A stretch of 64,000 bases of DNA from a virus, in IMG/VR virus record IMGVR_UViG_3300042691_030495, one strand, 5' to 3'. Position 1 is the first letter of the stretch. Each line of letters begins with the position of its first letter. Below, piece after piece: positions 16,007-34,999 of the stretch. The notes beneath the pieces are model-generated. The model was not told where the DNA came from and did not search any database. It saw nothing but the letters and a program-made list of their open reading frames with translations. A program made the position numbers and the translations under genes.

Positions 16007-17404
<1,398 letters not shown>

Positions 17405-17427: not shown

Positions 17428-18837
17428 ATGGGTAAAAGTATTATGGAACAGCTCGCTCTCCTTCCAGAGGAGGAGCGACTAGAGGCTCTTGCTGACATCG
17501 ATCCAGACTCTCTGATCTGGGACTGGTCCGTTTGGGCGCGTCCAGAGCAGCTAGCCCCGCCCGGTACCGATTGGAATATCTGGCTTGTTATGGCAGGCCG
17601 TGGTTTTGGTAAGACTCGCCTAGCAGCAGAATGGGTCCGCGAACAGGCCAAATACACGACTACCGGCCAACGCCGATTCGCACTTGTTGCCCGTACCGCA
17701 GCCGACGTCCGTGACGTTATCGTTGAAGGTGAGTCCGGAATCATCAATATCACCCCTCCAAGCGAGCGTCCACTATACGAGCCTTCGAAGCGTCGTCTAA
17801 CTTGGCCCAACGGAAACACCGCCACACTTTTTACCGCTGACGAACCTGACGGTCTCCGTGGTCCGCAGTTCACTCACGCCTGGGGCGATGAAATTGCAGC
17901 TTGGCGTCAGACTCCAGATGCCGCAGGTATGACCGCCTTCGATAACCTTCGAGTTGGTACTCGTCTTGGTGCAACCCCGCAGATGGTTGTTACCACAACC
18001 CCCAAGCGAGTTCCACTTCTTTACAAACTTATCGAAGAGTCCAGAACCGACAAAGGTAACGTAATTATTACCAAGGGATCTACCATGGACAATGCTGGAA
18101 ACCTTTCCAACTCATATCTTGACACCATTACCGGCGTTTACGAAGGTACCGCCTTGGCTCGCCAGGAGCTTTACGGTGAGATGCTCGAGGATCTCGAAGG
18201 CTCTATGTGGAATGAAGAGATGGTTGAAGAAGCTAGACATGCTATGTATCCATTCTCTACTCCTCTAAGAGTTATCGGCGTTGACCCTTCTGTTGCTGAA
18301 AACCCTCGCGACGAATGTGGAATTGTTGTAGTAGCGTCTACTGCAGATCACGATCTCTACAAGCGCGAAGCATGGGTTCTAGAAGACGCTTCTGTTCACG
18401 GCTCTCCAGATACTTGGGCTCGTAAAGTTGTTGAGATGGCACGCAAGTGGGGGTGCCCTGTTGTAGCCGAAGTAAACCAAGGTGGCGCACTAGTTCGAAA
18501 CGCTATTCTTTCAATCGACCCGAGCATTAAAGTTCTAGAGGTCCACTCTAAGCAAGGTAAACAGCTTCGTGCAGAGCCAATTGTTCTTGCCTACGAGCAA
18601 AAGCGCGTCCACCATGTTGGATACCTACAGGACCTAGAGTCTCAGATGTACTCGTGGATTCCAGGCGAAGGAAAATCTCCTGACCGGATTGACGCACTTG
18701 TCCACGCTTTAACCGCGCTACTAATTAAACCACCGCCTGGCTTTAGCGGAGGAAAGATACGCGCAAAATCTGTGGCAGACAGAAGACTTCCAAAAAGCTC
18801 AATAACTGACCGAGTAAATATCTTTAGAGTCCGCTAA
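17428..18837 (+). CDS. terL: terminase large subunit
   Basis: Walker A AGRGFGKT, Walker B AWGDE, nuclease IGVDP and SPDRIDA. Confidence 0.97.
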   Translation: MGKSIMEQLALLPEEERLEALADIDPDSLIWDWSVWARPEQLAPPGTDWNIWLVMAGRGFGKTRLAAEWVREQAKYTTTGQRRFALVARTAADVRDVIVEGESGIINITPPSERPLYEPSKRRLTWPNGNTATLFTADEPDGLRGPQFTHAWGDEIAAWRQTPDAAGMTAFDNLRVGTRLGATPQMVVTTTPKRVPLLYKLIEESRTDKGNVIITKGSTMDNAGNLSNSYLDTITGVYEGTALARQELYGEMLEDLEGSMWNEEMVEEARHAMYPFSTPLRVIGVDPSVAENPRDECGIVVVASTADHDLYKREAWVLEDASVHGSPDTWARKVVEMARKWGCPVVAEVNQGGALVRNAILSIDPSIKVLEVHSKQGKQLRAEPIVLAYEQKRVHHVGYLQDLESQMYSWIPGEGKSPDRIDALVHALTALLIKPPPGFSGGKIRAKSVADRRLPKSSITDRVNIFRVR

Positions 18838-19498: not shown

Positions 19499-21250
19499 TT
19501 GGGAATTTTCAATAAGAACAGCAAAAACACACGTAGAGAATCTACTAACAGTCGCTTTAGGGCTTCGGTGCCTCGCACTGCGACCCCTGTTGCTCCAGGC
19601 ATCTCTGTAGATTCTTTCGGTTTGGTTTATGCAGAGCCCGCGGCCTACAACACCCCTAGAGCTTTAACTGCAGCAGCAGCCCAGATAAAAATTGGTGACA
19701 AAACAGAGGCAGAGCAGTTTAAAGCTCGTAGACAGTCCGCTTCTTCGTCCTGGCAGACAGAAGCTTGGGAGTACTACGACGCGATTGGCGAAATTAAGTA
19801 CGCTTTTAATCTTGTTGCTGCAGTTGTATCCCGTATTCGAATCTACGCAGCATCTGTAGACAACCCAGCCGAGGCTCCTGTTCCTGTAAATATCTCAGCG
19901 AACATAGATCCTCAGCTAGCAAGAGCCGCTGAGCGCGCATTGGCAAGACTTAACTCAGCATACGGTGGTCAGGCAGGTCTTTTGAAAGACGCTGCTCTAA
20001 ATCTTCAGGTTACTGGAGAGTGCTACCTAGTTCAGGTTCCAGAACGTGTTGGCACTGGTCTTCCAGAGAGCTGGGACATGAGATCTGTAGATGAACTACA
20101 GCTAGACTCCAGAGGAAACTATGTCATTAGCCCAATTCGCGATGTTTCAGGATCTTCTTCCAACCAAACTTCAAAAAGTGCGATAAAACTTCCTAAGGAC
20201 GCGTTTATTGGACGCATTTGGAAGTCTCACCCTCGTTACTCACTAGAGTCAGACTCATCGCTGCGCGGTCTACTCGATCTTTGCGCTGAACTTCTACTTC
20301 TTAACCGCACCTTCCGTGCAACTGCACGTTCACGCTTGAACGCTGGTGCTCTCTACTTGCCAGACGGACTGTCAGTAGCATCTTCTCCGGATCCAGACTA
20401 CCCATACGATGAAGATGGCGAATACAACGAGCAGTATAACGCCGAGGAAGCTGCTGACGACTTCGAAGATCAACTAATCGACGCGATGACCACTCCGATT
20501 AAGGACGAAGACTCCGCGAGCGCCGTTGTCCCACTTATCATTCGTGGACCTGCAGAACTTGGCGACAAGATCAAGCAGTTTAAGTTCGAGCGTTCGTTTG
20601 ACGCCAGCCTTGTGCAGCGTGCTGACCGAGTCCTTGAGAGAATCATGCAGGGTCTAGACGTCCCTAAGGATGTTGTAACAGGTCTTGCAAATGTTAAGTA
20701 TTCAAACGCTCTACAGATTGACGAAGCACTCTACAAGGCTCACATCGAACCTCTAATGCTTCTTATTGTTGACGCTTTGACTGTTGTTTACTTGCGTCCA
20801 TACCTAATTGCAAACGGCTATGACGAAGAAGCTGTAGCCAAGATTCAGGTTTGGTATGACCCAAGTCAGGTAGCAACCAGAAATGACAGAGCTACCGACG
20901 CAGACAGCGGATTCGACAAGATGGCAGTCTCCTACAACACATGGAGACGCGCGCACGGATTCTCAGATGCAGACGCACCTAGCCCAGCAGAACTTGCACT
21001 ACGCCTTGTAATTGAGAAGGGTATGATCACCCCTGAGCTAACTCAAAGCATGCTAGAAGCGGTTGCGCCTGAACTTAAAGATCTTATTAACGCAGCAAGT
21101 CAAGCCAGCTCTGTAGCTCCTATGCCACCAGAGATTGAGCAATTGCTAGCTGGACAGCCAGTGGCTCCTGGAGCAGAGGCACCTACCGAAGAGCCTGCAG
21201 CAGAAGCCCCGGGTCTTGCAGAACCAGTAGCTCCTCAAGAAGGGCAGTAA
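19499..21250 (+). CDS. portal protein
   Basis: Size and position; WQTEAWEYYDAIGE, GECYLV, RIWKSHP motifs of actinophage portals. Confidence 0.9.
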   Translation: MGIFNKNSKNTRRESTNSRFRASVPRTATPVAPGISVDSFGLVYAEPAAYNTPRALTAAAAQIKIGDKTEAEQFKARRQSASSSWQTEAWEYYDAIGEIKYAFNLVAAVVSRIRIYAASVDNPAEAPVPVNISANIDPQLARAAERALARLNSAYGGQAGLLKDAALNLQVTGECYLVQVPERVGTGLPESWDMRSVDELQLDSRGNYVISPIRDVSGSSSNQTSKSAIKLPKDAFIGRIWKSHPRYSLESDSSLRGLLDLCAELLLLNRTFRATARSRLNAGALYLPDGLSVASSPDPDYPYDEDGEYNEQYNAEEAADDFEDQLIDAMTTPIKDEDSASAVVPLIIRGPAELGDKIKQFKFERSFDASLVQRADRVLERIMQGLDVPKDVVTGLANVKYSNALQIDEALYKAHIEPLMLLIVDALTVVYLRPYLIANGYDEEAVAKIQVWYDPSQVATRNDRATDADSGFDKMAVSYNTWRRAHGFSDADAPSPAELALRLVIEKGMITPELTQSMLEAVAPELKDLINAASQASSVAPMPPEIEQLLAGQPVAPGAEAPTEEPAAEAPGLAEPVAPQEGQ

Positions 21251-21252
21251 TA

Positions 21253-21708
21253 GTGGACCAGCCATCTAGCGTAGATCTTGCAAAGAAACTTGCTCATCTA
21301 CTGTCTGACGTAGTTTCTCTGTCTTTTATTTCTCAGGGGCACCACTGGAACATTAAAGGTTTTAACTTTTATCAGTTCCACGCGTTCTTTGCAGAAATAT
21401 ACGAAGACACTTCTTCAGCGATTGATCCTCTTGCAGAAAACATTAGAAAGCTAGGATTCAATGCCCCCTATCTTCTAACTGACTTTTCCGAGATGACCTG
21501 CATCAACCAAGAACGAATTGACGGAGACGCCATTGAGTCTATTAATTCTTTAGTTAGTGCAAACAGTATTGTAACTAACTGCTACGCAGATGCTTTTGAG
21601 CTTGCAGAAAACTGCAACCAACCAGGCATTGCAGACTTCCTTGCTGGAAGACATGAGATGCACCAGAAGTGGCAGTGGCAGTTAGAGTCAACTTTAGGGA
21701 TTAGATAA
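21253..21708 (+). CDS. dps: Dps (ferritin-like DNA protection protein)
   Basis: HHWNIKGFNFYQFHAFFAEIY...IDPLAENIRKLG signature with ferroxidase H/H/D/E. Confidence 0.92.
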   Translation: MDQPSSVDLAKKLAHLLSDVVSLSFISQGHHWNIKGFNFYQFHAFFAEIYEDTSSAIDPLAENIRKLGFNAPYLLTDFSEMTCINQERIDGDAIESINSLVSANSIVTNCYADAFELAENCNQPGIADFLAGRHEMHQKWQWQLESTLGIR

Positions 21709-22400
21709 TGTCTTCGTATTTAGAGTCTGCTTTTGGTGGAAACTCAAATATCTCGGGATACTCTTTAGTCCCAGAAGAGCAAGAGTTTGCTGACGCAATC
21801 CTAAAGGTTGCCAAAAAGTACGGAAAGTTTAACGACGACAACAGCGGTGTTTGGGTTGGGTACACTCCTGCCTCAGAGAATGAGGAGAACGCTCAGATTG
21901 GCGTTAAGTGTGGCAACTGTGTCTTCTTCATGGGCGGAAATGCCTGCCAGATCCTAGCTGAAGCAGTGGAGGAGAACGGCCTATGCCGTCTTGCTGTATT
22001 GCCAGATGGCGCAGTCACTGCTACAGCTGGCTCAAAGCCTGCTCCGAAAAAAGATCAAATCAAAGGATCTAAAAAGAACCCTAAAGGTTCGGCCGACGAT
22101 GGCAAGAGCGTAACTTTCAACGAAACCATAATTACGTCCCTCAAGAACAAGGTAGAAAGCCACAACGAAAAGGCAGAAGCTGGCAGAAAAGCAACTCTTC
22201 CAACTCTAAAAGCTGTATACCGCAGGGGTGCTGGAGCTTTCTCTACATCTCACAGGCCTGACCAGAATCGCAACTCTTGGGCTATGGCCAGAGTGAACGC
22301 ATACCTGCACTTACTAAAAACCGGATCTCCTAAAAACTCAAAGTACACAACAGATAATGACCTGCTACCAAAGGGTCACCCAAAGTCAACAAAGAAATAA
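21708..22400 (+). CDS. two-domain head-module protein: HiPIP-like 4-Cys domain plus basic helical domain
   Basis: CGNCVFF...C...GLC; LKAVYRRGAGAF...WAMARVNAY. Confidence 0.7.
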   Translation: MSSYLESAFGGNSNISGYSLVPEEQEFADAILKVAKKYGKFNDDNSGVWVGYTPASENEENAQIGVKCGNCVFFMGGNACQILAEAVEENGLCRLAVLPDGAVTATAGSKPAPKKDQIKGSKKNPKGSADDGKSVTFNETIITSLKNKVESHNEKAEAGRKATLPTLKAVYRRGAGAFSTSHRPDQNRNSWAMARVNAYLHLLKTGSPKNSKYTTDNDLLPKGHPKSTKK

Positions 22401-22473: not shown

Positions 22474-25400
22474 GTGAGCCAAGCGTTCGATTCCCTACTC
22501 GCTAAGATCGAGAACTACTACTCTGACGCGGATTACACCGTTCAAGACGCCGAGCACCTGTCTCGCATCGCTATCTCCGAATACGCTTCGACTCAGAATG
22601 CTCTAGTAGCTTCGGCTCGTCAACTTTCCAATAATTCAGTACAAAAAATTATTGACCTAACAATTAATAAGCACATAACTGCAGACCCAAGCGAGTGGAT
22701 GCTCTTCGCAGCAAATGCCGTAGACAACGTAATTAACTACTCACAGCGCGGTGTACTAGCTTCTGGTCTTTCAGACTTTACAGACTTTTTACCAGTAGGT
22801 CACCCGTCAAGAACTAACCGCGGGGCTATGACCGCCTCTGCACTAAACCAGGCCACCGCGCTTTGGACTGCTGCAGACCCTCGCATTGCTTCTGACGAAG
22901 CTAGATACGACACATACAAAGCATACGCAAGCCAGCCAGGATCAGTTGAAGCAGACTACGCAGCGTATAAACTTTCAGCACTAGTTGCAGCAGGTTATGT
23001 TCCAGAAGACATTAGTCTTCCGATCACTGCAGCGTTCAGAATGAGCTTTGCAATGCGCTCCGCAATGTCTAAGGCACTTGCTGCTGTACGTCGTCGCCAC
23101 CGCGATGGTAGATTCGCTGAAGAGTTTGGACGTCTAAAGGGATTCTTTAGCCGTGGAGACGGAAGCATTTTCTCTGAAAACGGAAGAATTGTTGGCGCTG
23201 AGCGTGGGACCAACAACTTTGAGGTAGAGTTCAGCGGATCCGACGAGATTCCAGATGGTATCTACACCATCGATGCAGCTAAGACAGATTCCGTTAAAGC
23301 TGTTCTATCTAAGCGCGCACTGAAAGGCGTTAAAGGAAAGCGCAGTATTGCAGTGCCGACTCAGGCAGAGCGAGACGCTGCTATTCCTCTAGACGAGTTT
23401 ATAAAAACTAAAAAAGATGCACCAGAGGGTTGGACTAAGAACGAAGATGGATCTTTTACATCTAAGACAGGTCAGACACTACGTCAGGTAGACACTCGCC
23501 CTGAAGGTGACTACATGTTTGAAGGTGCTGGCGAAAGTGGTGCCGAAGATCCTAACGAACCGTTCTTTGAGTTAACTGACAGAGACGGCGAAATAATCGG
23601 TGTTGCTCAGGACTGGGCCGGCGCAAACAAAATTGCACTTACCTACGATGCTTTTGAAGAAGACAGCAAGCCAGAACCAGAAGAGCCAGGTCTCGACCAA
23701 GACGCTCCTGCCTCTGATCAAGAGGATCCTACAGCCATTGGAAAACCGGAAGACCCTAGAGCAGCTGCAATAGAAGATTTAGTATCCAACCTTGACTCTG
23801 CTGAAGCAAGAAGAGAATTTGAGCGCATGGAGCGGAGAGATGGCTCTTGGCTTGACTCAGAGCAGCCATCAATAGACGCGTATGGACCTGACGATAAGAA
23901 TCTGAACTGGAATGCTGAGTACGACAAAACTACTAAGGACCTTATAGAAAAGATTTTTAGTGACCCAGCAGTTGTCGAAGCTCGTAATGATAGGCCACTA
24001 GCTAAAACGCAAGAGGGCGACCCTGAGGACTGGGAATTAGACAATTGGTACCAAGAAGTCGGCGCTGCAATTTCATGGGCAGCAAAAAAGTACGCAGAAG
24101 AAGCTGCACCGGGCCTCGACCAAGATGCTCCTCGAAGCTTAAATGAGCCAGAAGACTCCGCTGTTGACATCGGTCCAGACCTAGAGAGAACTGACAGCGG
24201 AGATTTAGAGTACTACTCTGACACTGCTGGTGCTGACATCTCTAAAGTTGGAGACAAGTGGCAGCTCGTCAAGAGCGGGTTTGAGGATATTGAACAGCAC
24301 CCACGCGGTGTCTACCAGTATGAAGACACTAAGATGTTTGACTCCGAGCAAGAAGCCATAGCTGAAGCACAAAAGTGGATTGATTTAGGTAAGTCTTCTG
24401 ACTTCTACGACTTTATGTATAACGACTGGTTTGATGGCCAAGCAGATGGCCTAGACCAGGATGCCAAAAACCCTAACTGGTTTGAAGACGCTATTGACTT
24501 TGATGCCATAGACAATCAGGATAGCTGGAAAGACCTAGGCGGAGGCTCCAGAGAGTACACCTCACCAGACGGAAAACTAAAACTAACTTTTGAACCAGAC
24601 GGCGACTCGGACGGTGAGGGTGGACTTGTAGACGCCTCCGGAATTACTGTTGAGTACGATGGTCAATCTGTTGGCAGCTTTAAGGCAACCGAGCGCGACC
24701 TCACGTCTCCAGGAGAAGTTGCAGACGCCCTTAGCCGTACTTTAGCTGAAGCTAATTTTAATCCTAACGATTTAATAAAATTTGATGATTTTGGAAATTA
24801 CGGCTTCGAGCGAGAGAGCGGTCTTGGCACAGTTTCTATCTCTAAAAAGTACGACCCAAACACTAAGAAACTCCAGTGGGAAGTAACTAAAGAAGCTCGC
24901 GACCTTATTGATGAGAACGTTGAGCACTCTTTCTTTGAGCAAAAAAAGTTTGACTCCTTAGATGACGCAAGAGCTTTCGCTGAAGAGTTTGCTCAGATTC
25001 TTAACGATGACGACAAATTCTCCAAATTCCTAAACGATGACTGGGCAGACAGAGACTACGACTACGGCTTTGACCAAGCAGGCGGATCTACGACAGATAC
25101 CGTAAAGCAGCTTGCTGACGGATACAACATCACTCCTCGTGTAGAAATAGTTTACAATTCGAACACCAAGCAGTATGAGCGTTCAGTAAACTCGAACGAG
25201 TTTGAAGCAGACGGTGACTTCTACGACTTTGGTTCGGCAGTAGTTAACCTGTCTGAATATGCTCCAGGTAAATGGGTAGCAACTATCTTCTATGGAGATA
25301 GGGATGGCAGTGGCCAGGATACCCTTGAACTTGAGCAAGACTTCAACAGCCCCGAGGAAGCCTTCGAGTGGGTAGCTAACGGATTTGGTAAAGGGTTTGA

Positions 25401-27915
25401 CAACTCTCAGGTTGCGGAAGGTGTATTAGAACGTCAAGACCTAGATGAGATGGCTAGCTTCCTGCAGAACCCTAAGTACAAGGATGCTCACGACGAAGTC
25501 CGTGATGTTTACGATGAGCTCAACTCAAAGTACTTTGAGCAGGCTCCTGGATCAGGAGAGATCGAGGCCACAGAAGGCGGAAATGCTTCCTACAAAGGAC
25601 CAGATGGATCTACTGGATCTATAAAGTCCGACGGCTCCGGCACCTGGGAAGGCTCCTTCACAGACGCTGAGGGAGAAGTCTCCACCAGAAAGTTTAAAGC
25701 AGAAGATAAAGCTGCTGCTTGGCTACAGAAAAAAGTAGACGACTCTAAATTAGCTGCGTTTAAGAAAGAAAATGGCGGGCTATCTCCAAAGCAGCTCGAG
25801 CCAGCTACCTCTAAGCAGTATGACCTACTGCAGGAACTTTTTGACGAGCGCGACGAGATTGATTCTCTAACTTCTGACGCCATCAAAGATGCTCTAGACA
25901 ACCGCAACCTTTCTAAGTCTCAGATTTCTGCCCTATTTGGCGATCTTCAGAAGAAGCCGTTCAAGCCAGGAGTAGACTCCACTAAGCCAACCGACAGAAT
26001 GTTGAACTCTCTACAGGGCTACCTGACTACAAAGCAGATTTCTCCAGAAGAGCTAGACGACATCCTCAGTCAGCTTGAGGCAGGACTAGACCGCCCTGGC
26101 ATCGAGGCCTTGACAAACAAGCTACGTCGTAAGCCAGATAACGCTGACGCAGCTGGCCTTGACCAAGATGTTAACTCCAAGATTGACCCCACTATGCCTG
26201 ACTCAGCAGTAGGTGCTGATGATGACATTAAGCAAGAAATTGAAGACGCTATTGAGCGCGCCCGTAGCGATCACGAGCGCCTATTTGACGAAATAAATGC
26301 AAAAGAAGAAGACGGAGAGATAACTCCGGAAGAGGCAGAGTCCCAGCGGGATGAGCTAGAGCAGGGCTTGGAGCAGTTCCAGTGGGCTGCCCGTAGACGC
26401 TACTACGATTATCTTTGGGAGACCGGAGAGTTCAACGAAGCGTACAACGATGTTCTAGAAGCATGGAACTCGCAGAGTTTCCGCGATGAGGAAAGAGATA
26501 GAGCTTCACTATTTGACGAAGAAAACGAAGAGGATGAGGGATTAGACCAAGACGCTCCAACCAAGCCTCTCACCGAAAAGCAGCTAGAGCCAGCTTCTGA
26601 CGCTCAGTACAACTACCTACAGAGTCTTGTTGAATCCAAGATGAATGTAGACGCTGACACTGCCGCCGCTGTTGCTGAAGCAGCTACTAACAAGAACCTA
26701 AGCAAGGCTCAGGCCGGTGCTCTTATTGGCAAGCTCCGTGTTCTAGATGACAAAGAAAATCTTGGTCAGTACGGCAAGCCTTCTCAAAAGATGATTGACT
26801 CGGTTAATCGCGACGTCTACGCTAAGGGACTTTCCGAAGAAGACAGAAACGAGATTTTAAAAGATCTTGACAGCTTGTCTAAGGCTGATGTCTCAAGCAT
26901 CATAAGCCAGCTCAAGGAGATGCCAAACGTTCCTGGAGGTCTCGACAACTACATCAAGTCTTTAGTTGAAGATGGAGATCTTGAGGCACTTAAGAGACTA
27001 AGAGCTGACGTTAGAAATGAAGACTCCTTCTCTGTATTAGACAAAGCTATAGCTGATGTCGAGGCCGGAAACACTCCTGGACTAGATCAGGCTGCTCCTT
27101 CAGCTCCGGCTTCAGGACCTCTCTATGACAGGGACGAAGCTTCGAACCTACTAGACGAGATAAAAGCGGCTGAAGACGCTGGTGAAATTGGTAGCACCTT
27201 CTTGCCAACAGACTCTCTTAAGGATTTTGACCCTGAAGACATCGGAGATGCGGCTAGCATGTATGTCGAGTTAGACGATGCTATCGGCAATGTTGGAGAG
27301 GGCAGCTTAAGACAGAAGCTAGAGCAGTTTGCTGAAAAACTACTCAGCAGCATCCAGTCTAGGCTTGGCCCAGTTGAGTCCGCTAAGCGCGACAGCGATG
27401 ATATCGGAAGCGAATTAGAGTTTGATCGCACTTCTAGAAGAGCTAACGATCTTGTTGAGTTCTACTACCCCTCAGAAGGTATCGCTTTTGACCAGCTAAA
27501 TGAGCCAGGAAACAGCAATGTTGGAGACAACAGAGGCGGCGGCTGGGAAGCACGAGTTGCTCTAGACGAAGATGAAGAAGAGGAAACTTGGGTTGCAACC
27601 TTAACCTCTCCCGAAAACGACAGCCAAAACGAGCAAAGAAGTTTTGACAACCAAGAAGACGCGGCTCGCTGGGCAGCAGAAAACTTAGAGTCTAATAATA
27701 ACGAGCTTTTGCCATCAGAATTAGATGAGTTTTTGAGTGGACAAATCTTCTCGACTTATGCTGACAACCCTCAGGCGCTAATCTCTAAGCTGAACGACAT
27801 AGCTGAGTGGTTCCGAGGAACCCGTAGAGGCGACGGAGAAGACGTAGCTAGGGGAATCCTAGAATACGTAGATCGACTAGAAAACCTTCTTGGAGACTCT
27901 GCCCCAAAAGCGTAG
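22474..27915 (+). CDS. giant acidic modular (polyvalent) head-associated protein with G[LF]DQ linkers
   Basis: 1813 aa between portal and protease; seven G[LF]DQ[DA] plus variants; internal domain repeats. Confidence 0.85.
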   Translation: MSQAFDSLLAKIENYYSDADYTVQDAEHLSRIAISEYASTQNALVASARQLSNNSVQKIIDLTINKHITADPSEWMLFAANAVDNVINYSQRGVLASGLSDFTDFLPVGHPSRTNRGAMTASALNQATALWTAADPRIASDEARYDTYKAYASQPGSVEADYAAYKLSALVAAGYVPEDISLPITAAFRMSFAMRSAMSKALAAVRRRHRDGRFAEEFGRLKGFFSRGDGSIFSENGRIVGAERGTNNFEVEFSGSDEIPDGIYTIDAAKTDSVKAVLSKRALKGVKGKRSIAVPTQAERDAAIPLDEFIKTKKDAPEGWTKNEDGSFTSKTGQTLRQVDTRPEGDYMFEGAGESGAEDPNEPFFELTDRDGEIIGVAQDWAGANKIALTYDAFEEDSKPEPEEPGLDQDAPASDQEDPTAIGKPEDPRAAAIEDLVSNLDSAEARREFERMERRDGSWLDSEQPSIDAYGPDDKNLNWNAEYDKTTKDLIEKIFSDPAVVEARNDRPLAKTQEGDPEDWELDNWYQEVGAAISWAAKKYAEEAAPGLDQDAPRSLNEPEDSAVDIGPDLERTDSGDLEYYSDTAGADISKVGDKWQLVKSGFEDIEQHPRGVYQYEDTKMFDSEQEAIAEAQKWIDLGKSSDFYDFMYNDWFDGQADGLDQDAKNPNWFEDAIDFDAIDNQDSWKDLGGGSREYTSPDGKLKLTFEPDGDSDGEGGLVDASGITVEYDGQSVGSFKATERDLTSPGEVADALSRTLAEANFNPNDLIKFDDFGNYGFERESGLGTVSISKKYDPNTKKLQWEVTKEARDLIDENVEHSFFEQKKFDSLDDARAFAEEFAQILNDDDKFSKFLNDDWADRDYDYGFDQAGGSTTDTVKQLADGYNITPRVEIVYNSNTKQYERSVNSNEFEADGDFYDFGSAVVNLSEYAPGKWVATIFYGDRDGSGQDTLELEQDFNSPEEAFEWVANGFGKGFDNSQVAEGVLERQDLDEMASFLQNPKYKDAHDEVRDVYDELNSKYFEQAPGSGEIEATEGGNASYKGPDGSTGSIKSDGSGTWEGSFTDAEGEVSTRKFKAEDKAAAWLQKKVDDSKLAAFKKENGGLSPKQLEPATSKQYDLLQELFDERDEIDSLTSDAIKDALDNRNLSKSQISALFGDLQKKPFKPGVDSTKPTDRMLNSLQGYLTTKQISPEELDDILSQLEAGLDRPGIEALTNKLRRKPDNADAAGLDQDVNSKIDPTMPDSAVGADDDIKQEIEDAIERARSDHERLFDEINAKEEDGEITPEEAESQRDELEQGLEQFQWAARRRYYDYLWETGEFNEAYNDVLEAWNSQSFRDEERDRASLFDEENEEDEGLDQDAPTKPLTEKQLEPASDAQYNYLQSLVESKMNVDADTAAAVAEAATNKNLSKAQAGALIGKLRVLDDKENLGQYGKPSQKMIDSVNRDVYAKGLSEEDRNEILKDLDSLSKADVSSIISQLKEMPNVPGGLDNYIKSLVEDGDLEALKRLRADVRNEDSFSVLDKAIADVEAGNTPGLDQAAPSAPASGPLYDRDEASNLLDEIKAAEDAGEIGSTFLPTDSLKDFDPEDIGDAASMYVELDDAIGNVGEGSLRQKLEQFAEKLLSSIQSRLGPVESAKRDSDDIGSELEFDRTSRRANDLVEFYYPSEGIAFDQLNEPGNSNVGDNRGGGWEARVALDEDEEEETWVATLTSPENDSQNEQRSFDNQEDAARWAAENLESNNNELLPSELDEFLSGQIFSTYADNPQALISKLNDIAEWFRGTRRGDGEDVARGILEYVDRLENLLGDSAPKA

Positions 27916-27933
27916 CCCCCAGCGAGGGGGCTG
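27903..27933 (+). promoter_or_regulatory. programmed -1 ribosomal frameshift signal
   Basis: In-frame heptamer C CCA AAA (27903-27909) then hairpin AGCCCCC-agcga-GGGGGCT (27914-27932). Confidence 0.8.
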
Positions 27934-30221
27934 ACAGTGGTGTTGGTCTAGATCAAGATGCCGCGGCTATTGACAGAATTAACAAGGTTCTAGCTAAGTA
28001 TCGCCCTGAGCCAGCGCCAAGCAACTCTGTACGTCCTGCGGTAGCAGTGGGCGAGCCAGGATCTAAAGCTAACCCACTCAAGCTAGATGACGAGCAGCTA
28101 CAAGAAAAAACTACACAGGTCACTAAAACCAACCTAGCTGCTTCAATTTCAGTTCTTTCTGAACTATATGACGCTTTTGATAATGTTAAAAAATTCGCAT
28201 TTTGGCGAAGAAAATGGGACCGCAACGCTACTAGGCCTATACCAGTAAACCCTGGTACTGGAGCCTACTACAAAGGTCCCAACGTGTTTGCTTTAGAAGA
28301 GGCAGCGGCTAAGAACGGATTTAGCGACCCTCGTTGGATGACCGCTCAGCAAATACTAAATATGGGTGGGTCAGTTCCTAGCGGTACCAAAGGTACACAA
28401 ATCCTAGTCCCTCAGGTTTTGGTTACTGATGTCAAAGGCAAAGTTGTAGAGCTGTATGAGTTTATGAAGGTTACTGTTTTTAATGGCGACCAGGTCGATG
28501 GAATCCCGTCATATAACCAAGATGACAACAAATCATATACTCCAGAAGAAGCTGCGAATATTCTTTTAGACCGCCTACGCGAAGCCTCTGAGATCAGAGA
28601 CACCGGACAACCAAATGTATTTGGGATTCAGCTTGATGAAGATCAAAATCCTCGATGGATGCCAAACTACGGTTCTTTTCAGCCTGAAAAAATACGACTA
28701 CCGCTTAGAGCAAATTTTGAGGATGACGAAGAGTGGTTTAACACTCTAGCTCACGAACTTATCCACTCTACGGGTAAACTTAACCGACTTGATAGAAAAG
28801 AACTAGATAAAGCTTTTGAAGGTGATGACTCAAGTAGGGCGGAGGAAGAGCTTACTGCAGAGCTAGGTGCCATGATTTTAAGTCGAATGTTTGGAATAGG
28901 TTCTGATTCTAAAAACTCTACAGCATACTTACTTAACCACTTAAAAAATGTTAAAGAGCAAGATCGCAACAACGCTGTAACCGCTGCAGTGTCTAGAGCA
29001 CAGGTTGCGGTTGAGTACTTACTGGGGAATGATGTTTTGCCTCAGTGGGACCCACTAAAGACTAAGGTCTTCCCAACCATACAGTCTGAAAGATTAGATG
29101 TCACTACTCCAAAAGCTTCAAGCTTAAACCCAGACCCAACTCCTGACTTTGTTGATGCCCAGTTAGCTGGCTTTGATCAGGCAGTAGGAGAGGAGTCAGT
29201 CGACCAGGGTAAGTCAATATCAAACAGCAAAGACGCCAAAGAAAAAGTTCTGTCTAGCCTGTTAGAAAAAATTAAAGAAGGTAAGACTCCTTGGCGTAAA
29301 CCGTTTAAAGAAGGATCAAACTTTGCAGGAGCAGACTTACCTAGAAACCCAGCATCAAAGCATATCTACAATGGCATAAACGCGATGGTTCTAAGACTAA
29401 ACCAGCAGCTTTCTGGATATGACGACCCTCGTTGGATGACATACAAGCAAGCTCAGGATCTCGGTGGAAACGTTAGAAAAGGCGAGAAGGGTGTTCCAAT
29501 TCTTATACCTTTCAAGCAGGTTCGCAAAGAGAAAGATTCTGCAACTGGACAAGAAGTAGTTACCGGTAGCTTTATAAGATTTGGAACCGGAACAGTCTTT
29601 AACGTCTCTCAGATTGATGGCATTACTCTTCCTACTGCTAAAGAAGAGGCAGGAGAACCAAAGACTCCTCTAGAGGCTCAAGAATTTATTTTAGAGCGCT
29701 ACAAAAAGTCTATGGAAGCTAAAGGTCTAAAGACACCAGAAGTTGAGTACACCTACATTGGAGAGTACGGGAACCACGCTTCTTCTCCAAACTGGAGTCC
29801 TTCTCTAGATAGAATTACACTTCCAACCAAGGAGCAGTTCAACAGTCCAGAAGACATGTTTGACACTATTGCCCACGAGCTAGCCCACAGCACGGGACAC
29901 AAGGATCGCCTAGATAGGACAGAACTTACCAGCAAGTATGGATCTGATAGCGCCGCTCGCGGCCAAGAGGAGCTCATAGCTGAGATAGCAGCTGCTATTT
30001 TGGCGAGCATGTTTGGAGTCAATAGCGACTTTGATAACACTGCAGCTTACGTAAAGAGCTGGCTTGCAGCCCTAAAGGATGACCCTAACATGGTTACCCT
30101 ATCCTCCTCAGAAGCCCAGAAGGTAGTAGACTACATACTAGGCATGGATCTAGGAGACTGGAGTCCAATAGAAGGCTACAAATCTACAGTTACTAAAAAA
30201 GATGGAGACTCAGATGAGTGA
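27909..30221 (+). CDS. ardC: tandem ArdC-like units (ssDNA-binding domain plus zincin HExxH peptidase, x2); probably the -1 frameshift extension of 22474-27915
   Basis: PWRKP...YNGIN...DPRWMTYKQ...GGNVRKGEKG; HELIH and HELAH; EEL.AE; frame open back to slip site and encodes GLDQDA. Confidence 0.85.
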   Translation, partial: SVAPSEGADSGVGLDQDAAAIDRINKVLAKYRPEPAPSNSVRPAVAVGEPGSKANPLKLDDEQLQEKTTQVTKTNLAASISVLSELYDAFDNVKKFAFWRRKWDRNATRPIPVNPGTGAYYKGPNVFALEEAAAKNGFSDPRWMTAQQILNMGGSVPSGTKGTQILVPQVLVTDVKGKVVELYEFMKVTVFNGDQVDGIPSYNQDDNKSYTPEEAANILLDRLREASEIRDTGQPNVFGIQLDEDQNPRWMPNYGSFQPEKIRLPLRANFEDDEEWFNTLAHELIHSTGKLNRLDRKELDKAFEGDDSSRAEEELTAELGAMILSRMFGIGSDSKNSTAYLLNHLKNVKEQDRNNAVTAAVSRAQVAVEYLLGNDVLPQWDPLKTKVFPTIQSERLDVTTPKASSLNPDPTPDFVDAQLAGFDQAVGEESVDQGKSISNSKDAKEKVLSSLLEKIKEGKTPWRKPFKEGSNFAGADLPRNPASKHIYNGINAMVLRLNQQLSGYDDPRWMTYKQAQDLGGNVRKGEKGVPILIPFKQVRKEKDSATGQEVVTGSFIRFGTGTVFNVSQIDGITLPTAKEEAGEPKTPLEAQEFILERYKKSMEAKGLKTPEVEYTYIGEYGNHASSPNWSPSLDRITLPTKEQFNSPEDMFDTIAHELAHSTGHKDRLDRTELTSKYGSDSAARGQEELIAEIAAAILASMFGVNSDFDNTAAYVKSWLAALKDDPNMVTLSSSEAQKVVDYILGMDLGDWSPIEGYKSTVTKKDGDSDE

Positions 30222-30381
30222 AAAGAAACCAGACATCCTAGGTGGTTACACTGAAAATGATCCAGAATACTGGGCACTTTTAGCAAAGATCATAGGGAAC
30301 CCTGTGCCAGAGTACGAAGACGACAGCGAGTTCGTTGACGAAAATGGCGTTGTCATAAAAGACATAAAGCCCGCTGAATAA
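30214..30381 (+). CDS. small acidic hypothetical protein (55 aa)
   Basis: SD GGAG; overlaps upstream stop; not in ORF track. Confidence 0.6.
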   Translation: MSEKKPDILGGYTENDPEYWALLAKIIGNPVPEYEDDSEFVDENGVVIKDIKPAE

Positions 30382-30439: not shown

Positions 30440-33400
30440 ATGAATAACCTAATTGGCCGCTCTGGCAGCTTGTCTCTCTATGCTAATAACGAGCATGGAG
30501 TGATTATTGACTCCTCCATCGGAGCAGTTGTTGCTAGTGGTGCTGCTTCTGACGTTTACTTCCTTGAGAGCTGGGATCTTCCGACTGATCCGGGGGCTAA
30601 AGCTGAAATTCTATTAGCTGAAAAAGCCTTGAGCGCTCTTGAAGAAAAAGCTATTGTTGCTGCCGCCGACAGAATGTACACAATTCCGAAAACTGTACAG
30701 GCTGAAGCTAAGAAAGCTTTAGAGTGGCGCAAAGAAGAGAACCGTGGGGGAACTCCTGTAGGTCTTAACACTGCTCGCACTCTTGCAAAAGGCGGTCAGA
30801 TTGGCATTCGTAAGATTCGCCACATTGCAAAATACTTCCCTCGTCATGAGGTAGACAAAAAAGGCAAGGGCTGGAAGCCTGGCCAAGAAAACTATCCATC
30901 TAACGGACGCATCGCGTGGGCACTCTGGGGTGGAGATGCAGCATGGCGCTGGGCACGCACAATTGTAGAGCGTGAAAACAAAAAGCCTGTAACTTCAGGG
31001 GGCTACTACCCAGGGCAGACAAACTTCGAAACAAGCTCGGAAGATATAAATCCATTTAAATACGCTAACGATCTTGACATGCACTACGGACCTGAATTTT
31101 TAGTCAGAGTCTGCTTAGACGGTTCCGGAATGGATCGCCTATACATGGTTGACATCGACGGATCGATTTACGTGTGGGACGACTCTAACTGGGACAACAT
31201 GGGACATGTCGATGGTGATGTGTGGACATACGATCGTATGCTAGATGATGTTTACGATACTCAGGAAAAAACTCACGTAATTATCGACCCTCAGTCGGCT
31301 CTGCAAATAGCAGCACGCATGGCTGTAGATCCTGGTTGCAAAGTAACTATGTATGAGCTTGACCAGGATGAAGCAGCTCTTACTATGTCAGGGCTTCAGG
31401 ATGAAGACTGGGACTTTATAGACCAAGTAATTGTTGCAGCCGGTACAGCTGACCCAACGACATCCCAGGCAGATAAAGATGGTGACGGAGTACTAGACTC
31501 TGATTTCTTATCTGAAAAAGCAGAAAACCAACCTAGAGATGCACGCGGTCAATTTGCTGCTGCAGGTTCTAGGGTTATTGTTGGTGGCGACGCCCAGCGC
31601 GGGTCAGGTGTTATTACAAAAGTAGACAGCAAGACCGGAATGGTTTCCGTTCGACTTGACAGCGGAAAAGAAATTGAAGTAGACGCTAAGTACACCGAAG
31701 GCGAAAAAGGCTTTGTTGGCCCTAGAGCCGTACCTAAGACCGTAGCCCCATTAGACCTTTCTGGAATTATTGGAGAATCTAGAACTCCAATTAACATGCC
31801 TAATGCTCACCTTCCTGGAACGCTACCTCCGATGTCCAGTAGAGACATTGACAACATGCTTTACAACTGGCCTAAGTACGTATCTGACATGCGCAGTTCC
31901 TACAAGCCAGCAGACGCAGCAGACAAAGAACGAGTAAAAAAGACCTGGGGACTTGAAAAGTTTGCAGGAGAAAACTCTATTGTTGCCGCAGCGGAAACAG
32001 AAAAGACGCTAACTCCAGCTACCTCAGATGTTCCACCTAAATACCTAGCAATAGTTACAGAGGAAAATCCTCAGGACGTAGTAGATCTAGTTGCACTGGT
32101 TCCAGCCAGTGCTACCTCTACCGAGCCTATTGCCTACACTAGAGATGGTGACAAGTGGGTCCGCGACGATCAGACCATGGCTGACCTCCGCTCTTCAACA
32201 AAGCCGCCTGTTATTGAGCTAGACAAAGAGTCTCTAAATGATGTGCTTACTCAAATGTCTGAAACCGAAAAAGCCCCAACAAAGGGCATAGAAGAGTTTT
32301 CTACATTAAAAAATATTAATGCTATCTTTGATGCTTTTGTTGCAGCTGGCGGTTTAGACCGTAACCGAGGAAACGCGGAAGAGCTTCGCCGTTACTGGAC
32401 TTCAGGTAAGGGTGCAGCCAAGATCCGTTGGGGAACCCCGGGGGACTGGACTAGATGTGTTCGTCAGCTTTCTAAGTACATGGGACCTAGAGCTAAGGGT
32501 TACTGCCAGCTCAGACATAAGGATGCCACGGGAGTATATACAGGCAGTAGGCTAAACCCCGGAAGAGAAAACTCTATGGAATCCCAGATGTTTTCGTCCT
32601 TAGAAGATTTTAACCAGAAAGTTATAGCCCACTCTGAGCTTGTAGCTAGGGCCGCGCACGCTAAAGAAAGATTTGCTGTAACTGCAGGAGCAACTCCAAT
32701 GATGGACTCTGGCGCTAGGTTTACTATCCCTCTTTTGATACCAGAGGAGCTAGAGTCTGGCGATGGAAGAAAGTTCAAGAAGGACTCAATAACACTTAGA
32801 GAACTTCCGCTACCTTTGCTATGGCAAATTAAGACTGGAGAAGGTCACGCCGGATCTGTAGTTGTTGGTCGGATTGACTACATAGAGAGAACCGAGAACG
32901 GATTAGGCAACGCCTATGGAGTTTTTGACACTGGAGCTTACGGAAAAGAAGCTGAACGTCTAGTTAGGAATGGATTCCTACGTGGAGTCTCCGCCGACCT
33001 AGATCAGTTTGAGGCTAAAGAAGATAAGAAGCCTAAGCCTGAAGGTTCTGCGGAACTAGAAGACGAGGGAGAGATCGGCAAAGACAAACTCACGGTCAAT
33101 AGGGCACGCGTAATGGCTGCTACAATTGTAGCAAAGCCTGCATTCCAGGAATGCACTATTTCTATTGACGAATCAGGCTACCAGGAGGAAGAAAACATGC
33201 CCCTAACCGACGGTCTCTATGAGGAGACAATTGACTCTACCGTCGTGCCGCTAGTTGCCTCAGGATTTTTAGATTCAGAGATTCCTGTAGTTCCACCACA
33301 GGACTGGTTCGAAAACCCTAATCTAACTAAGCCAACCCCTCTAACTGTAGACCCAAGCGGTCGCATTTATGGTCACATTGCAGCATGGCACGTAAACCAC

Positions 33401-34999
33401 ATTGGTATGCCTCGCTCGACTCGTCCACCTCGCTCTAAGAGCAAGTACTCCTACTTCCACACTGGTGTTGTTCGCACAGACGCTGGTAAGGATATTCCAG
33501 TCGGACAGCTAACTCTTGCAGGCGGCCACGCAGATTTAACTGCTAGCGCATCTCAGGCTGCTAAGCACTACGACGACACCGCTTCAGCAATTGCTGACGT
33601 TTGCGCCGGAGAAGACGAGTACGGAATCTACGTATGCGGTTCACTACGCCCAGGCGCAACCGAAATGCAGATTCGTGCACTACGCGCTTCTGCTCCTTCA
33701 GGCGACTGGAGACCAATCAACGGCTCACTTGAGCTAGTTGCAGTTTGCCAAGTTAACGTCCCAGGATTCCCTATTGCTCGTGCACTTGTTGCATCTGGCA
33801 AGGTTATGGCTTTGGTTGCTGCTGGCGCTAGCTTCTTTGCAATTATGAAGAGCGAGCACGTAGAGCACTTTGTAACTAGAGCAGAGCGTCTATCTCAGCT
33901 AGCTGCTTCAACTCCAGACTTAAAGTCTAGAGTTAAGAAAGCCAAAAAAGAAGCCAAGACTTATGCAATAACCGCTGCGGCTAAAAAGGTTGAGACCATG
34001 CGTGAGCGGGCACTTATTGCTGCTGCTGCAGCCGAGCTTTCAAAGATTAGCGAATTGCAGCGTAAACATCTTGCAGTATCTGGCAAAGCACTTCCAGATG
34101 GCTCATACCCGATTCGCAACGTAGAAGATCTAAAGAATGCAATACAGGCTTACGGAAGATCAAATCCAGAAGATCGCAAAGCGGTTAGAGCTCACATTCG
34201 CAAGCGCGCAGAAGCTTTAGGTAAAACTGACCTAGTTCCAGAAAACTGGAAGGCTGCTGCCATTGTAGATGTGCAGAGCTCCGCAGAAAAGATGCGCTCA
34301 GTTATTGCAGCTGTCAACGCAAAGCTTACTGAGTTTGCTGAAGTCGACGAGATCACTGACGCTGACCTAGAAAAGCTTAAGGACGCTAAAACAGAAGCTG
34401 ACAAGCAGACCGAAGAAGAAATTCAGCAGGCAGAAGACGTCCGCACTGGAAAGACTACTGCAGAAGATAAGTTTGATGAGGATGGCCGCACAAAATTTAC
34501 GCCAAAGACTCAGCCTCGCGATGCTAAAGGTAAGTACCGCAAGGTCTTGGCTAGATTAAAGCAGAACCTAGGAGTAGCCGGTCTACAGAAGGCACTACTT
34601 AAGGTTCAAGAAGCCGAAAACCTAGAGTTTTCCGGTAACTACACCAAGTCGGCTGCTGCCAGCTCAGAGCTTTTGGACATGATTGACAGATTGGACACTA
34701 AGGCGCTAAACCCAGAGGCCTTGGAGAACGTTCGACTAACTGCCGCAGAGCTAGGCAAGACTATTGCCAACCTGCCCCTGCCTTTTGGCAAGGAATCATC
34801 AAAATTAAGATTTAGCGATTTACCGTCTGGACTCAAGGATCTCATCGAAAAGATGATTACTCGGGTCGAGGCCAAAATCGGTAAAGAAGACGCGGCCGTC
34901 GCCACTAAAGGCCTGCAGTCCTATATGTCTGGAGCAGATGTCTACTCCCAGGGTGAAATTCAGTCTGAGATGAGCAAGCTACTCCGACTCCTTACCTAA
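30440..34999 (+). CDS. multidomain capsid maturation (prohead) protease
   Basis: ESGDGRKF...LPLLWQ...GHAGSVVVGRI...FLRGVSADLD (HK97/herpes-type His and Ser); directly before capsid gene; several accessory domains. Confidence 0.8.
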   Translation: MNNLIGRSGSLSLYANNEHGVIIDSSIGAVVASGAASDVYFLESWDLPTDPGAKAEILLAEKALSALEEKAIVAAADRMYTIPKTVQAEAKKALEWRKEENRGGTPVGLNTARTLAKGGQIGIRKIRHIAKYFPRHEVDKKGKGWKPGQENYPSNGRIAWALWGGDAAWRWARTIVERENKKPVTSGGYYPGQTNFETSSEDINPFKYANDLDMHYGPEFLVRVCLDGSGMDRLYMVDIDGSIYVWDDSNWDNMGHVDGDVWTYDRMLDDVYDTQEKTHVIIDPQSALQIAARMAVDPGCKVTMYELDQDEAALTMSGLQDEDWDFIDQVIVAAGTADPTTSQADKDGDGVLDSDFLSEKAENQPRDARGQFAAAGSRVIVGGDAQRGSGVITKVDSKTGMVSVRLDSGKEIEVDAKYTEGEKGFVGPRAVPKTVAPLDLSGIIGESRTPINMPNAHLPGTLPPMSSRDIDNMLYNWPKYVSDMRSSYKPADAADKERVKKTWGLEKFAGENSIVAAAETEKTLTPATSDVPPKYLAIVTEENPQDVVDLVALVPASATSTEPIAYTRDGDKWVRDDQTMADLRSSTKPPVIELDKESLNDVLTQMSETEKAPTKGIEEFSTLKNINAIFDAFVAAGGLDRNRGNAEELRRYWTSGKGAAKIRWGTPGDWTRCVRQLSKYMGPRAKGYCQLRHKDATGVYTGSRLNPGRENSMESQMFSSLEDFNQKVIAHSELVARAAHAKERFAVTAGATPMMDSGARFTIPLLIPEELESGDGRKFKKDSITLRELPLPLLWQIKTGEGHAGSVVVGRIDYIERTENGLGNAYGVFDTGAYGKEAERLVRNGFLRGVSADLDQFEAKEDKKPKPEGSAELEDEGEIGKDKLTVNRARVMAATIVAKPAFQECTISIDESGYQEEENMPLTDGLYEETIDSTVVPLVASGFLDSEIPVVPPQDWFENPNLTKPTPLTVDPSGRIYGHIAAWHVNHIGMPRSTRPPRSKSKYSYFHTGVVRTDAGKDIPVGQLTLAGGHADLTASASQAAKHYDDTASAIADVCAGEDEYGIYVCGSLRPGATEMQIRALRASAPSGDWRPINGSLELVAVCQVNVPGFPIARALVASGKVMALVAAGASFFAIMKSEHVEHFVTRAERLSQLAASTPDLKSRVKKAKKEAKTYAITAAAKKVETMRERALIAAAAAELSKISELQRKHLAVSGKALPDGSYPIRNVEDLKNAIQAYGRSNPEDRKAVRAHIRKRAEALGKTDLVPENWKAAAIVDVQSSAEKMRSVIAAVNAKLTEFAEVDEITDADLEKLKDAKTEADKQTEEEIQQAEDVRTGKTTAEDKFDEDGRTKFTPKTQPRDAKGKYRKVLARLKQNLGVAGLQKALLKVQEAENLEFSGNYTKSAAASSELLDMIDRLDTKALNPEALENVRLTAAELGKTIANLPLPFGKESSKLRFSDLPSGLKDLIEKMITRVEAKIGKEDAAVATKGLQSYMSGADVYSQGEIQSEMSKLLRLLT

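Follow-up and report, generated by a model that had tools for sequence, protein, structure and literature searches.

The giant gene described here lies in the structural region of a siphovirus that is related to actinobacteriophages and is uncultured; the DNA is a stretch of 64,000 nt from the IMG/VR virus record IMGVR_UViG_3300042691_030495, which in its full length is referred to as the window. The gene consists of open reading frame (ORF) 1 (22474–27915), which encodes a giant polyvalent protein of 1813 amino acids (aa) ending in ...GDSAPKA before a TAG stop, and of a second ORF in the −1 frame, which ends at 30221 and encodes two ArdC units. ORF1 yields the short form of the protein; a −1 frameshift, very likely programmed as judged from the nucleotide sequence, would fuse both parts into a long form of ~2,582 aa. 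The giant gene with all its parts, the protease/scaffold gene downstream and the capsid gene are on the plus strand. The modules of the protein are separated by a recurrent motif of the type GLDQ. Most probably, the gene encodes a capsid-delivered polyvalent protein that is built like a viral polyprotein; its position suggests that the product is packaged in the virion and delivered together with the DNA.

Modules and the junction motif

The conserved N-terminal domain (aa 1–405; 22474–23688) has many invariant columns in the alignment of homologues and contains two near-invariant LVA[SA] tetrapeptides (aa 44–47 and 170–173) plus RHRDGRFAEEFG. It is 33% identical to the first 285 aa of a 3289-aa protein of DSL-LC01, a metagenome-assembled Actinomycetia phage that was the only match to the domain in the phage collection, and it is found at 25–36% identity in ~40 IMG/VR loci. 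The domain is also common to the motif-less giant proteins of related phages. From its position, it is presumed to be a head-incorporation domain.

The N-terminal domain is followed by nine cargo modules, M1 to M9 (23701–27912), which comprise residues 410–550, 551–662, 663–868, 869–1023, 1024–1231, 1232–1359, 1360–1539, 1540–1674, and 1675–1813. Each has a net charge between −10 and −30, and 99.7% of the 303 inter-site segments counted across the homologues are net acidic. M5 and M7 (E 1e-12 to 1e-17) form the sole related pair, which indicates that the motif is more than a portion of some repeated domain. Searches with Pfam, for ORF1 as well as for each module singly, gave nothing above cut-off (the best was DUF3072 on M7 with 2e-5), and none of the LPD families was found by Pfam in ORF1. 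A sequence/profile search of the giant protein in the PDB returned no match; comparison of a 1200-aa multi-module model to the PDB with Foldseek returned only meaningless matches (TM ~0.06).

All eleven copies of the motif reported in the first-pass annotation, which had been made from the letters and their reading frames, are present at the positions and in the frames given there. Two AlphaFold models, built with small homologue alignments (37 and 9 rows), cover 10 of the 11 sites: all eight modelled sites of ORF1 (modelled region aa 395–1594) and both sites of ORF2 fall in segments with a predicted local distance difference test score (pLDDT) below 50, while the modules between these segments reach a pLDDT of 75–90; in ORF1, the low-confidence segments make up 24% of the residues. 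The motif thus resides at module junctions in linkers which are rich in Pro and acidic residues and predicted to be disordered, and not in domains; had it been found within folded domains, as the annotation itself had considered, the polyprotein idea would have suffered. One look-alike, GLEQ at aa 1298, belongs to a helix modelled with confidence and is not kept as a site in the homologues.

Site 1 (PGLDQDAP, 23689–23706; model residue 12, pLDDT < 50) follows directly 3′ of the N-terminal domain. Site 2 (PGLDQDAP, 24112–24129; model residue 153 in the low-confidence segment 150–169), site 3 (DGLDQDAK, 24448–24465; residue 265, segment 258–272) and site 4 (YGFDQAGG, 25066–25083; residue 471, segment 467–527) are succeeded by the degenerate site 5 (KYFEQAPG, 25531–25548; residue 626, segment 625–633), which has kept the F at position −3 and the Q; in the 93%-identical homologue P0002 the same position reads YLGLDQDA. 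Further downstream are site 6 (AGLDQDVN, 26155–26172; residue 834, segment 833–853), site 7 (EGLDQDAP, 26539–26556; residue 962, segment 946–971), site 8 (PGLDQAAP, 27079–27096; residue 1142, segment 1140–1156), and site 9 (IAFDQLNE, 27484–27501), a variant that reads G[IV]AFDQLN in the homologues of group A and is located outside the folded region of the model. The final two copies precede the two ArdC units, as had been annotated: site 10 (VGLDQDAA, 27945–27962; ORF2 residue 32 in the segment 1–66 with pLDDT < 50) is 12 codons past the slip site, and site 11 (AGFDQAVG, 29169–29186; ORF2 residue 440 in the corresponding segment 405–466) lies between the units, the second ArdC-N domain starting at residue 460.

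The motif is far more frequent than composition would predict. GLDQ occurs seven times in the 2,582-aa fusion (expected, 0.059), and [GD][LF][DGNAS]Q seven times in ORF1 (0.7 ± 0.8 in 200 shuffles); the ten occurrences of [GA][LFIMV]DQ in the 64-kb window, counted in six frames and in ORFs of at least 100 aa, are all within the giant gene and its −1 extension. The copies use different codons, as first reported (GGT, GGC or GGA for Gly; CTC, CTA, CTT, TTA or TTT for Leu/Phe; GAC or GAT; CAA or CAG), which shows conservation at the protein level. The annotated spacing of 110–210 aa was likewise recovered, with a median of 156 aa in the homologues (interquartile range 112–202).

Homologues of ORF1 form 50 clusters (E 0 to 4e-62), and 48 of 51 proteins, the query included, contain at least three motif sites, so a general lack of the motif in homologues, which had been named as an outcome speaking against a processing signal, was not encountered. 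Among the 50 clusters the motif comes in four flavours: (D/E)-(A/D)-P-G-[LF]-D-Q-[DA]-A-P in the group closest to the window, P-G-F-D-Q-[AK]-[AP]-G, E-Q-G-L-G-Q-x-A-P, and, in a large group, [PV]-D-L-D-Q-D-x-P. A fifth, G-F-[AS]-Q-[EAK]-P-G, is found in a more distant IMG/VR lineage with 14 + 7 copies in one protein and 17 in another. Within a lineage the sequence from −8 to +3 is conserved, but it differs across lineages, the flanks being 90–100% conserved per genome; only L/F at −3 and the Q are constant across lineages. In every lineage, the N-terminal domain is followed by a site; the median position of this first one is about residue 409.

In pairwise BLAST alignments the blocks of homology begin and end at the motif, where modules have been exchanged, lost or moved. 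Residues 547–1236 of the window protein correspond to 591–1271 of P0010 and residues 1356–1813 to 1263–1720; site 7 is the exact start of the breakpoints of high-scoring segment pairs with P0010 and P0005, and the counterpart of M1 is found at residue 1296 in P0005 and at 1505 in P0013. The gain and loss of modules at motif boundaries, which the first-pass annotation had proposed to look for, thus occurs. Since homology starts and stops at the motif, the modules can be regarded as cassettes that meet at the motif. There is next to no probability left that the motif is a functionless remnant of tandem duplication or an artefact of composition. M5 and M7 are indeed paralogous and the protein is biased toward acidic residues, but the remaining modules are mutually unrelated, the enrichment is far over composition, and the motif is kept in proteins of 26–93% identity while the flanking modules swap; these observations effectively refute the idea.

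It is less easy to dismiss, though rather unlikely, that the motif is left uncut and is a linear recognition or structural element, that is, a docking site, a signal for threading during ejection, or a junction for cassette exchange. Like other short linear motifs it resides in disordered linkers, cassette breakpoints coincide with it, and some ArdC-bearing relatives manage without it; furthermore, the N4 virion RNA polymerase and the plasmid proteins ArdC/TraC1 travel uncut although they bear zincins (Iyer 2017, PMC5512222). However, nucleotide homology for recombination is poor because the codons differ among the copies. One targeting signal would suffice per polypeptide, yet the motif is found at every junction, including the frameshift and the one between the ArdC units. 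Moreover, a stringent motif of 4–7 residues with two invariant positions and Pro flanks is typical of protease sites. We know of no binding motif of the GLDQ-type form. Cleavage of the motif by some protease appears likely; plausible scissile bonds are Q|D/A (cut in a gp21-like or 3C-like fashion), G|L/F (by a thermolysin-like zincin), and L/F|D (by a subtilase).

The predicted frameshift and the ArdC extension

ORF1 ends in ...GCC CCA AAA GCG TAG. This 3′ end contains a slippery heptamer of the X_XXY_YYZ type, C_CCA_AAA (27903–27909), which is phased with ORF1 and located 3 nt 5′ of the TAG codon (27913–27915), followed after 4 nt by a hairpin with a GC stem of 7 bp (AGCCCCC-agcga-GGGGGCT, 27914–27932). 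Folding of positions 27903–27960 gives a minimum free energy of −19.8 kcal/mol, for which the z value is modest (−1.8). The −1 frame is open from 27852; the extension (27909–30221) reads PK-SVAPSEGADSGVGLDQDA and, up to site 10, PK-SVAPSEGADSGV-GLDQDA, after which the two ArdC units follow.

The arrangement is conserved. In homologues of 36–70% identity the heptamer is CCCAAAA (L003, L004) or AAAAAAA (L005, L016), a CCCCC/GGGGG stem with differing loops is kept in all five loci (the window, L003, L004, L005, and L016), and the −1 frames of the homologues open with [PK]KS[VL][AT]P.[EK]G.... In other relatives (L024, P0174, P0175, and P0177) the giant protein continues in frame into the ArdC tandem, from which it follows that the fused product is a natural form. 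The frameshift of the first-pass annotation is borne out by the phased heptamer and its hairpin, and the signal is very likely that of a real programmed −1 event.

Both units of the extension combine an ArdC-N domain with a zincin: unit 1 (27963–29168) has its HExxH motif as HELIH (28752–28766), unit 2 (29187–30221) as HELAH (29874–29888), with EELIAE. Pfam recognizes two stretches each of ArdcN (2.3e-47) and MPTase-PolyVal (9.1e-49). Each unit aligns over its full length with ArdC of plasmid R388 (PDB 6I89/6SNA; E 8.5e-41 for unit 2), and HExxH as well as the metal-binding Glu are matched; the alignment to 6I89 spans residues 8–284, and in both units ArdC-N is followed by a HExxH gluzincin with the downstream Glu. 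HExxH is intact in every ArdC unit that was checked. After the frameshift junction and before each ArdC unit, the motif is present in the flavour of the respective phage. In some relatives the frameshift extension has extra cassettes ahead of the ArdC tandem (L020, 18763–24099; P0061, P0078, and P0084), namely, an ADP-ribosyltransferase (PF03496) and ParB-like domains (PF02195), and these, too, are bounded by the motif flavour of their own lineage.

Candidate processing enzymes

The first-pass annotation had proposed a virion-packaged acidic precursor that is diced by the prohead protease or by its own HExxH domains. The precursor itself fits a polyvalent gene of the head module with acidic, unrelated modules, a linker motif and retention of that motif in homologues, while the prohead protease as its cutter has been weakened, as detailed below. 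In the scheme that follows, packaging, cleavage, the bond cut, the enzyme and the roles of the modules are inferred rather than observed. The N-terminal domain would take the protein into the prohead, and the signal (P)-G-[LF]-D-Q-[DA]-A-(P) in the linkers would be the site of endoproteolytic processing. The −1 frameshift would yield a minority long form to which the two ArdC units (ArdC-N, binding single-stranded DNA, plus HExxH zincin) are added. In the head, or just after ejection, cleavage would free modules of ~12–23 kDa and two free ArdC proteins; the zincin of the long form would cut the commoner short form in trans, the frameshift setting the ratio of enzyme to substrate as it does in Gag-Pol. 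In this complete form, a Gag-Pol-like strategy by which a frameshift-dosed, sequence-specific zincin dices a packaged polyprotein at G[LF]xQ into about eleven acidic effectors plus free ArdC, the scheme is doubtful.

As to the enzyme, the ArdC-type zincin of the polyprotein itself is tentatively put forward, which is a possibility short of an even chance. Zincin autoprocessing has been predicted for polyvalent proteins (Iyer et al. 2017, PMC5512222). For the protease of R388 ArdC no substrate is known, and anti-restriction does not depend on it; its closest structural relatives are the DNA-binding metalloproteases Spartan and IrrE (PMC7213743). All motif-rich giant proteins that could be followed to their end carry ArdC zincins (the window, L003–L010, L012, L016/L063, L020/21, L024/25, P0174, P0175, and P0177), and ~15 distinct giant proteins without ArdC show no recurrent motif, despite having the N-terminal domain and the protease family in common with them. 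The long, lineage-tuned recognition sequence also resembles those of dedicated polyprotein proteases more closely than those of prohead proteases.

A number of observations weigh against this assignment and the scheme built on it. The association of motif and ArdC may stem from a single origin in one clade and is statistically weak for that reason. ArdC-bearing relatives exist without a Q motif (L017, P0106–P0128), another one, L019, has only two sites, of the form S[LV]KQD[AL]P, and the motif was not seen where ArdC-type zincins are fused to primases, ATPases, or other giant proteins outside the clade. Because stand-alone ArdC proteins keep the protease without a polyprotein, the cutting of linkers cannot be the ancestral role of the zincin. 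Across flavours, the identity of the prohead-protease domain (70–78%) and that of the zincin (58–82%) does not tell the two enzymes apart. The phage collection yielded no cultured phage belonging to the motif-bearing clade. Lastly, the capsid protein has an invariant stretch, PADRQPVVQ-VTEAP (PVVQ-VTEAP being aa 252–260), at the end of its low-complexity, extremely acidic extension of ~240 aa (35121–35840); it is a candidate maturation site, and the h-h-Q|V within it could be a Gln-specific site of the prohead protease.

By an alternative, the polyprotein would be processed inside the prohead by the downstream prohead protease, cutting after Gln in [LF]-x-Q; this is unlikely, but has several arguments on its side. 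Trimming of ejection proteins by the prohead protease is textbook knowledge for T4 and phiKZ/SPN3US, and T4 gp21 cuts internal proteins at L/I-x-E, to which hydrophobic-x-Q would be a parallel. The giant gene is in the head module and adjoins the protease gene, and its first site follows directly after the N-terminal domain, as would be expected for the removal of a targeting sequence. In the capsid protein, PV[VL]Q-V is invariant in all lineages where the acidic extension meets the conserved body; a mature N-terminus near residue 256 is plausible because the homology to cluster-B-like capsid proteins begins near residue 270. The papers on SPN3US provide precedents of ejection proteins trimmed in this way.

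On the other hand, the prohead protease is weakened as the cutter by the finding that, in four lineages (the window, L003, L004, and L005), neither the capsid protein nor the portal nor the protease/scaffold protein contains the extended motif. Positions −4, −2, and +1 to +3 vary between lineages, although conserved within a genome, while the candidate site of the capsid and the protease remain unchanged, and no site of the capsid alignment co-varies with the motif flavour. In lineages that share the protease family, giant proteins devoid of a recurrent motif are found. In addition, the [LIVM]xA[SAG] motif of the head proteins would demand a second specificity of the enzyme. There are 18 [LIV]VA[SAG] tetrapeptides in the ORFs of the window, 13 of them in head proteins; sites are at 19811, 22603, 22981, 30527–33812 (seven), 36039, 36138, 36795, and 37393. 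The seven sites of the protease polyprotein are kept across all lineages as [LIVM]xA[SAG], including those of the motif-less DSL-LC01 and Cece, and several of them precede gapped, low-complexity stretches in the alignment; in the capsid protein, ALVA-SGG is invariant. Judging from this pattern, [LIVM]xA[SAG] probably marks the sites of the prohead protease itself, which would be assemblin-like with Ala at P1. Assemblin-type proteases use Ala at this position.

In T4 and phiKZ/SPN3US, head-packaged proteins are trimmed by gp21 (at L/I-x-E) or gp175/gp245 (at S/A/G-x-E), short motifs in which P1 is fixed and P3 is small or hydrophobic, and are then ejected with the DNA, and for T4 IPI a role in anti-restriction is known; a similar processing is proposed for the window protein. 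The invariant residue is Glu in these phages but Gln in the window, and their cargo is encoded by separate genes rather than as one polypeptide. Further, the T4 and phiKZ motif also occurs in capsid and scaffold proteins, as is characteristic of the T4 internal proteins and phiKZ ejection proteins, while the strict motif of the window is confined to one gene; a cleavage motif common to capsid and scaffold was not found, only the loose h-h-Q|V of the capsid. Two further candidates for a site in the protease polyprotein were discarded: ELDQDE at aa 306 is not conserved in relatives, and S[AV]DLDQFE, considered as a co-varying site, is invariant across all flavours and also where the motif is lacking. 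The region of the latter is read, from sequence motifs, as the core of the protease. The ArdC-type zincin is slightly favoured over the prohead protease, because the strict motif is absent from the head proteins and the motif-rich proteins end in ArdC zincins.

Cleavage by yet another protease, be it a host enzyme or the subtilase encoded by the phage at 10723–11652, is highly unlikely. The subtilase is a Peptidase_S8 (Pfam 1.4e-33) whose homologues are present in motif-bearing records (flavours B and D) and in 0 of 5 motif-less records. Subtilases favour L/F at P1, and such a preference would fit a cut at [LF]|D. The enzyme has, however, a typical Sec signal peptide (KNKISIALAVIVLAIGATPASA|G), so that it should act outside the cytoplasm, and it is absent from a 94%-complete record of the GFAQ flavour with 17 motif copies; on these two grounds it was rejected as the cutter. 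A host protease would not explain flavours specific to phage lineages. The subtilase gene is located ~1.6 kb upstream of one encoding a NlpC/P60 peptidase (13276–14025).

Related systems and neighbouring genes

Polyvalent proteins of phages and conjugative elements were described by Iyer, Burroughs, Anand, de Souza, and Aravind in 2017 (PMC5512222); examples are DdrB of P1, the virion RNA polymerase of N4, and gp47 of phi24B, which is abundant in virions. The window protein has much in common with them: they are giant proteins of 2–15 unrelated domains encoded in the neighbourhood of virion genes, which is matched here by the N-terminal domain, nine modules, and two ArdC units; ArdC-N and the zincin MPTase-PolyVal are hub domains, to which the relatives of the window protein add ADP-ribosyltransferase and ParB; and delivery with the DNA as well as zincin autoprocessing are predicted in both cases. 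In contrast to the window protein with its stringent, lineage-covarying motif between cassettes, no inter-domain punctuation motif is described for polyvalent proteins in PMC5512222, where the word “linker” is absent. Different are also the addition of the zincin part by a conserved −1 frameshift and the nine modules, which match no LPD or Pfam family.

R388 ArdC (PDB 6I89/6SNA; Gonzalez-Montes et al. 2020, PMC7213743) consists, like each unit of the window, of an N domain that binds single-stranded DNA and a metalloprotease similar to Spartan and IrrE. It is a free protein, whereas the window has tandem units, each preceded by the motif, in the frameshift-dependent C-terminal part of a head protein. 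The frameshift signal is like those of Gag-Pol and of the phage tail chaperones G/GT, where X_XXY_YYZ before a stop, together with a stem-loop, leads to an extended product as a fixed minority. The Gag-Pol extension carries the protease which dices the polyprotein at sites in its linkers; that protease is aspartic, and the extension of the window carries metalloprotease/ssDNA-binding units. The likeness to Gag-Pol is one of analogy, not homology, and the frameshift of the window is predicted and has a short spacer (4 nt).

The first-pass annotation, which knew of no description of such a motif system, had overstated its novelty, as polyvalent proteins and their zincin autoprocessing are treated in PMC5512222 and the trimming in T4 and phiKZ/SPN3US is known; its point does hold for the regular punctuation motif, for which no description was found. 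As far as the literature was searched, the combination is new: a junction motif at every cassette boundary, lineage flavours, and a conserved −1 frameshift that adds protease units. Polyvalent proteins are widespread in phages and plasmids, and their autoprocessing has been predicted without a defined cleavage signal. With a sharp junction motif and two candidate proteases encoded beside it, the question of processing can here be tested directly. If the ArdC zincin should be the enzyme, this protease domain would gain a function and a natural class of substrates; if it should be the prohead protease, that enzyme would be a Gln-specific variant with an unusually long recognition sequence. Either way, the motif is a parser which delimits dozens of acidic cargo cassettes, candidate anti-defence proteins, in uncultured freshwater viruses resembling actinophages, and the conserved frameshift is a new instance of recoding, here among the head genes of a phage.

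Upstream of the giant gene are the genes for the large terminase (17428–18837), the portal (19499–21250), a Dps/ferritin-like protein (21253–21708), and a DUF5824 protein (21708–22400). Downstream, an acidic ORF of 59 aa (30202–30381) overlaps the end of the ArdC ORF 5′ of the gene for the 1519-aa protease/scaffold polyprotein (30440–34999), which is succeeded by that for the major capsid protein (664 aa including the acidic N-terminal extension of ~240 aa; 35121–37115). The position of the giant gene between portal and prohead protease, as annotated, is correct with regard to order but not to adjacency, since the Dps/ferritin-like and DUF5824 genes precede it and the 59-aa ORF precedes the protease gene. 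The order terminase, portal, Dps-like, DUF5824, giant gene, protease, capsid is kept in L003, L004, L005, and L063, except that L004 is without DUF5824. Matching gene orders are found in metagenomic contigs of 100–140 kb; no match to the region was returned by megablast among 50,697 phage records. The capsid protein shares 70% identity with its counterpart in DSL-LC01 and ~55% with those of Microbacterium phages, for example, Cece.

The putative protease is identified by PHROG (head maturation protease, 4.6e-61) and by GenBank annotation (SEA-PHAGES, Cece gp70). Neither the protease/scaffold polyprotein nor its protease domain is recognized by Pfam, and sequence/profile searches of the PDB gave no match for the protease domain or the capsid protein. 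The polyprotein is encoded by one gene in the window, by two in L003 (17946–22893), and by three in DSL-LC01 (L001, 12957–17876). It contains the stretch Q-P-R-D-A-[RK]-G-[QK]-[FY] twice (31520–31550 and 34500–34530; aa ~362–372 and ~1356–1366), kept in all relatives; together with aa ~207–220 of the giant protein (23100–23140), these stretches may represent a shared element for head targeting or portal binding.

At the position of the 59-aa ORF, an ORF of 48–57 aa is present in L003, L004, L005, and L063, and in the relatives P0106, P0109, and P0110, DUF5824 is fused to the ArdC-bearing protein. Immediately 5′ of the terminase gene, a gene at 16007–17401 encodes a protein of 465 aa that contains collagen triple-helix repeats (Pfam 7.1e-10).

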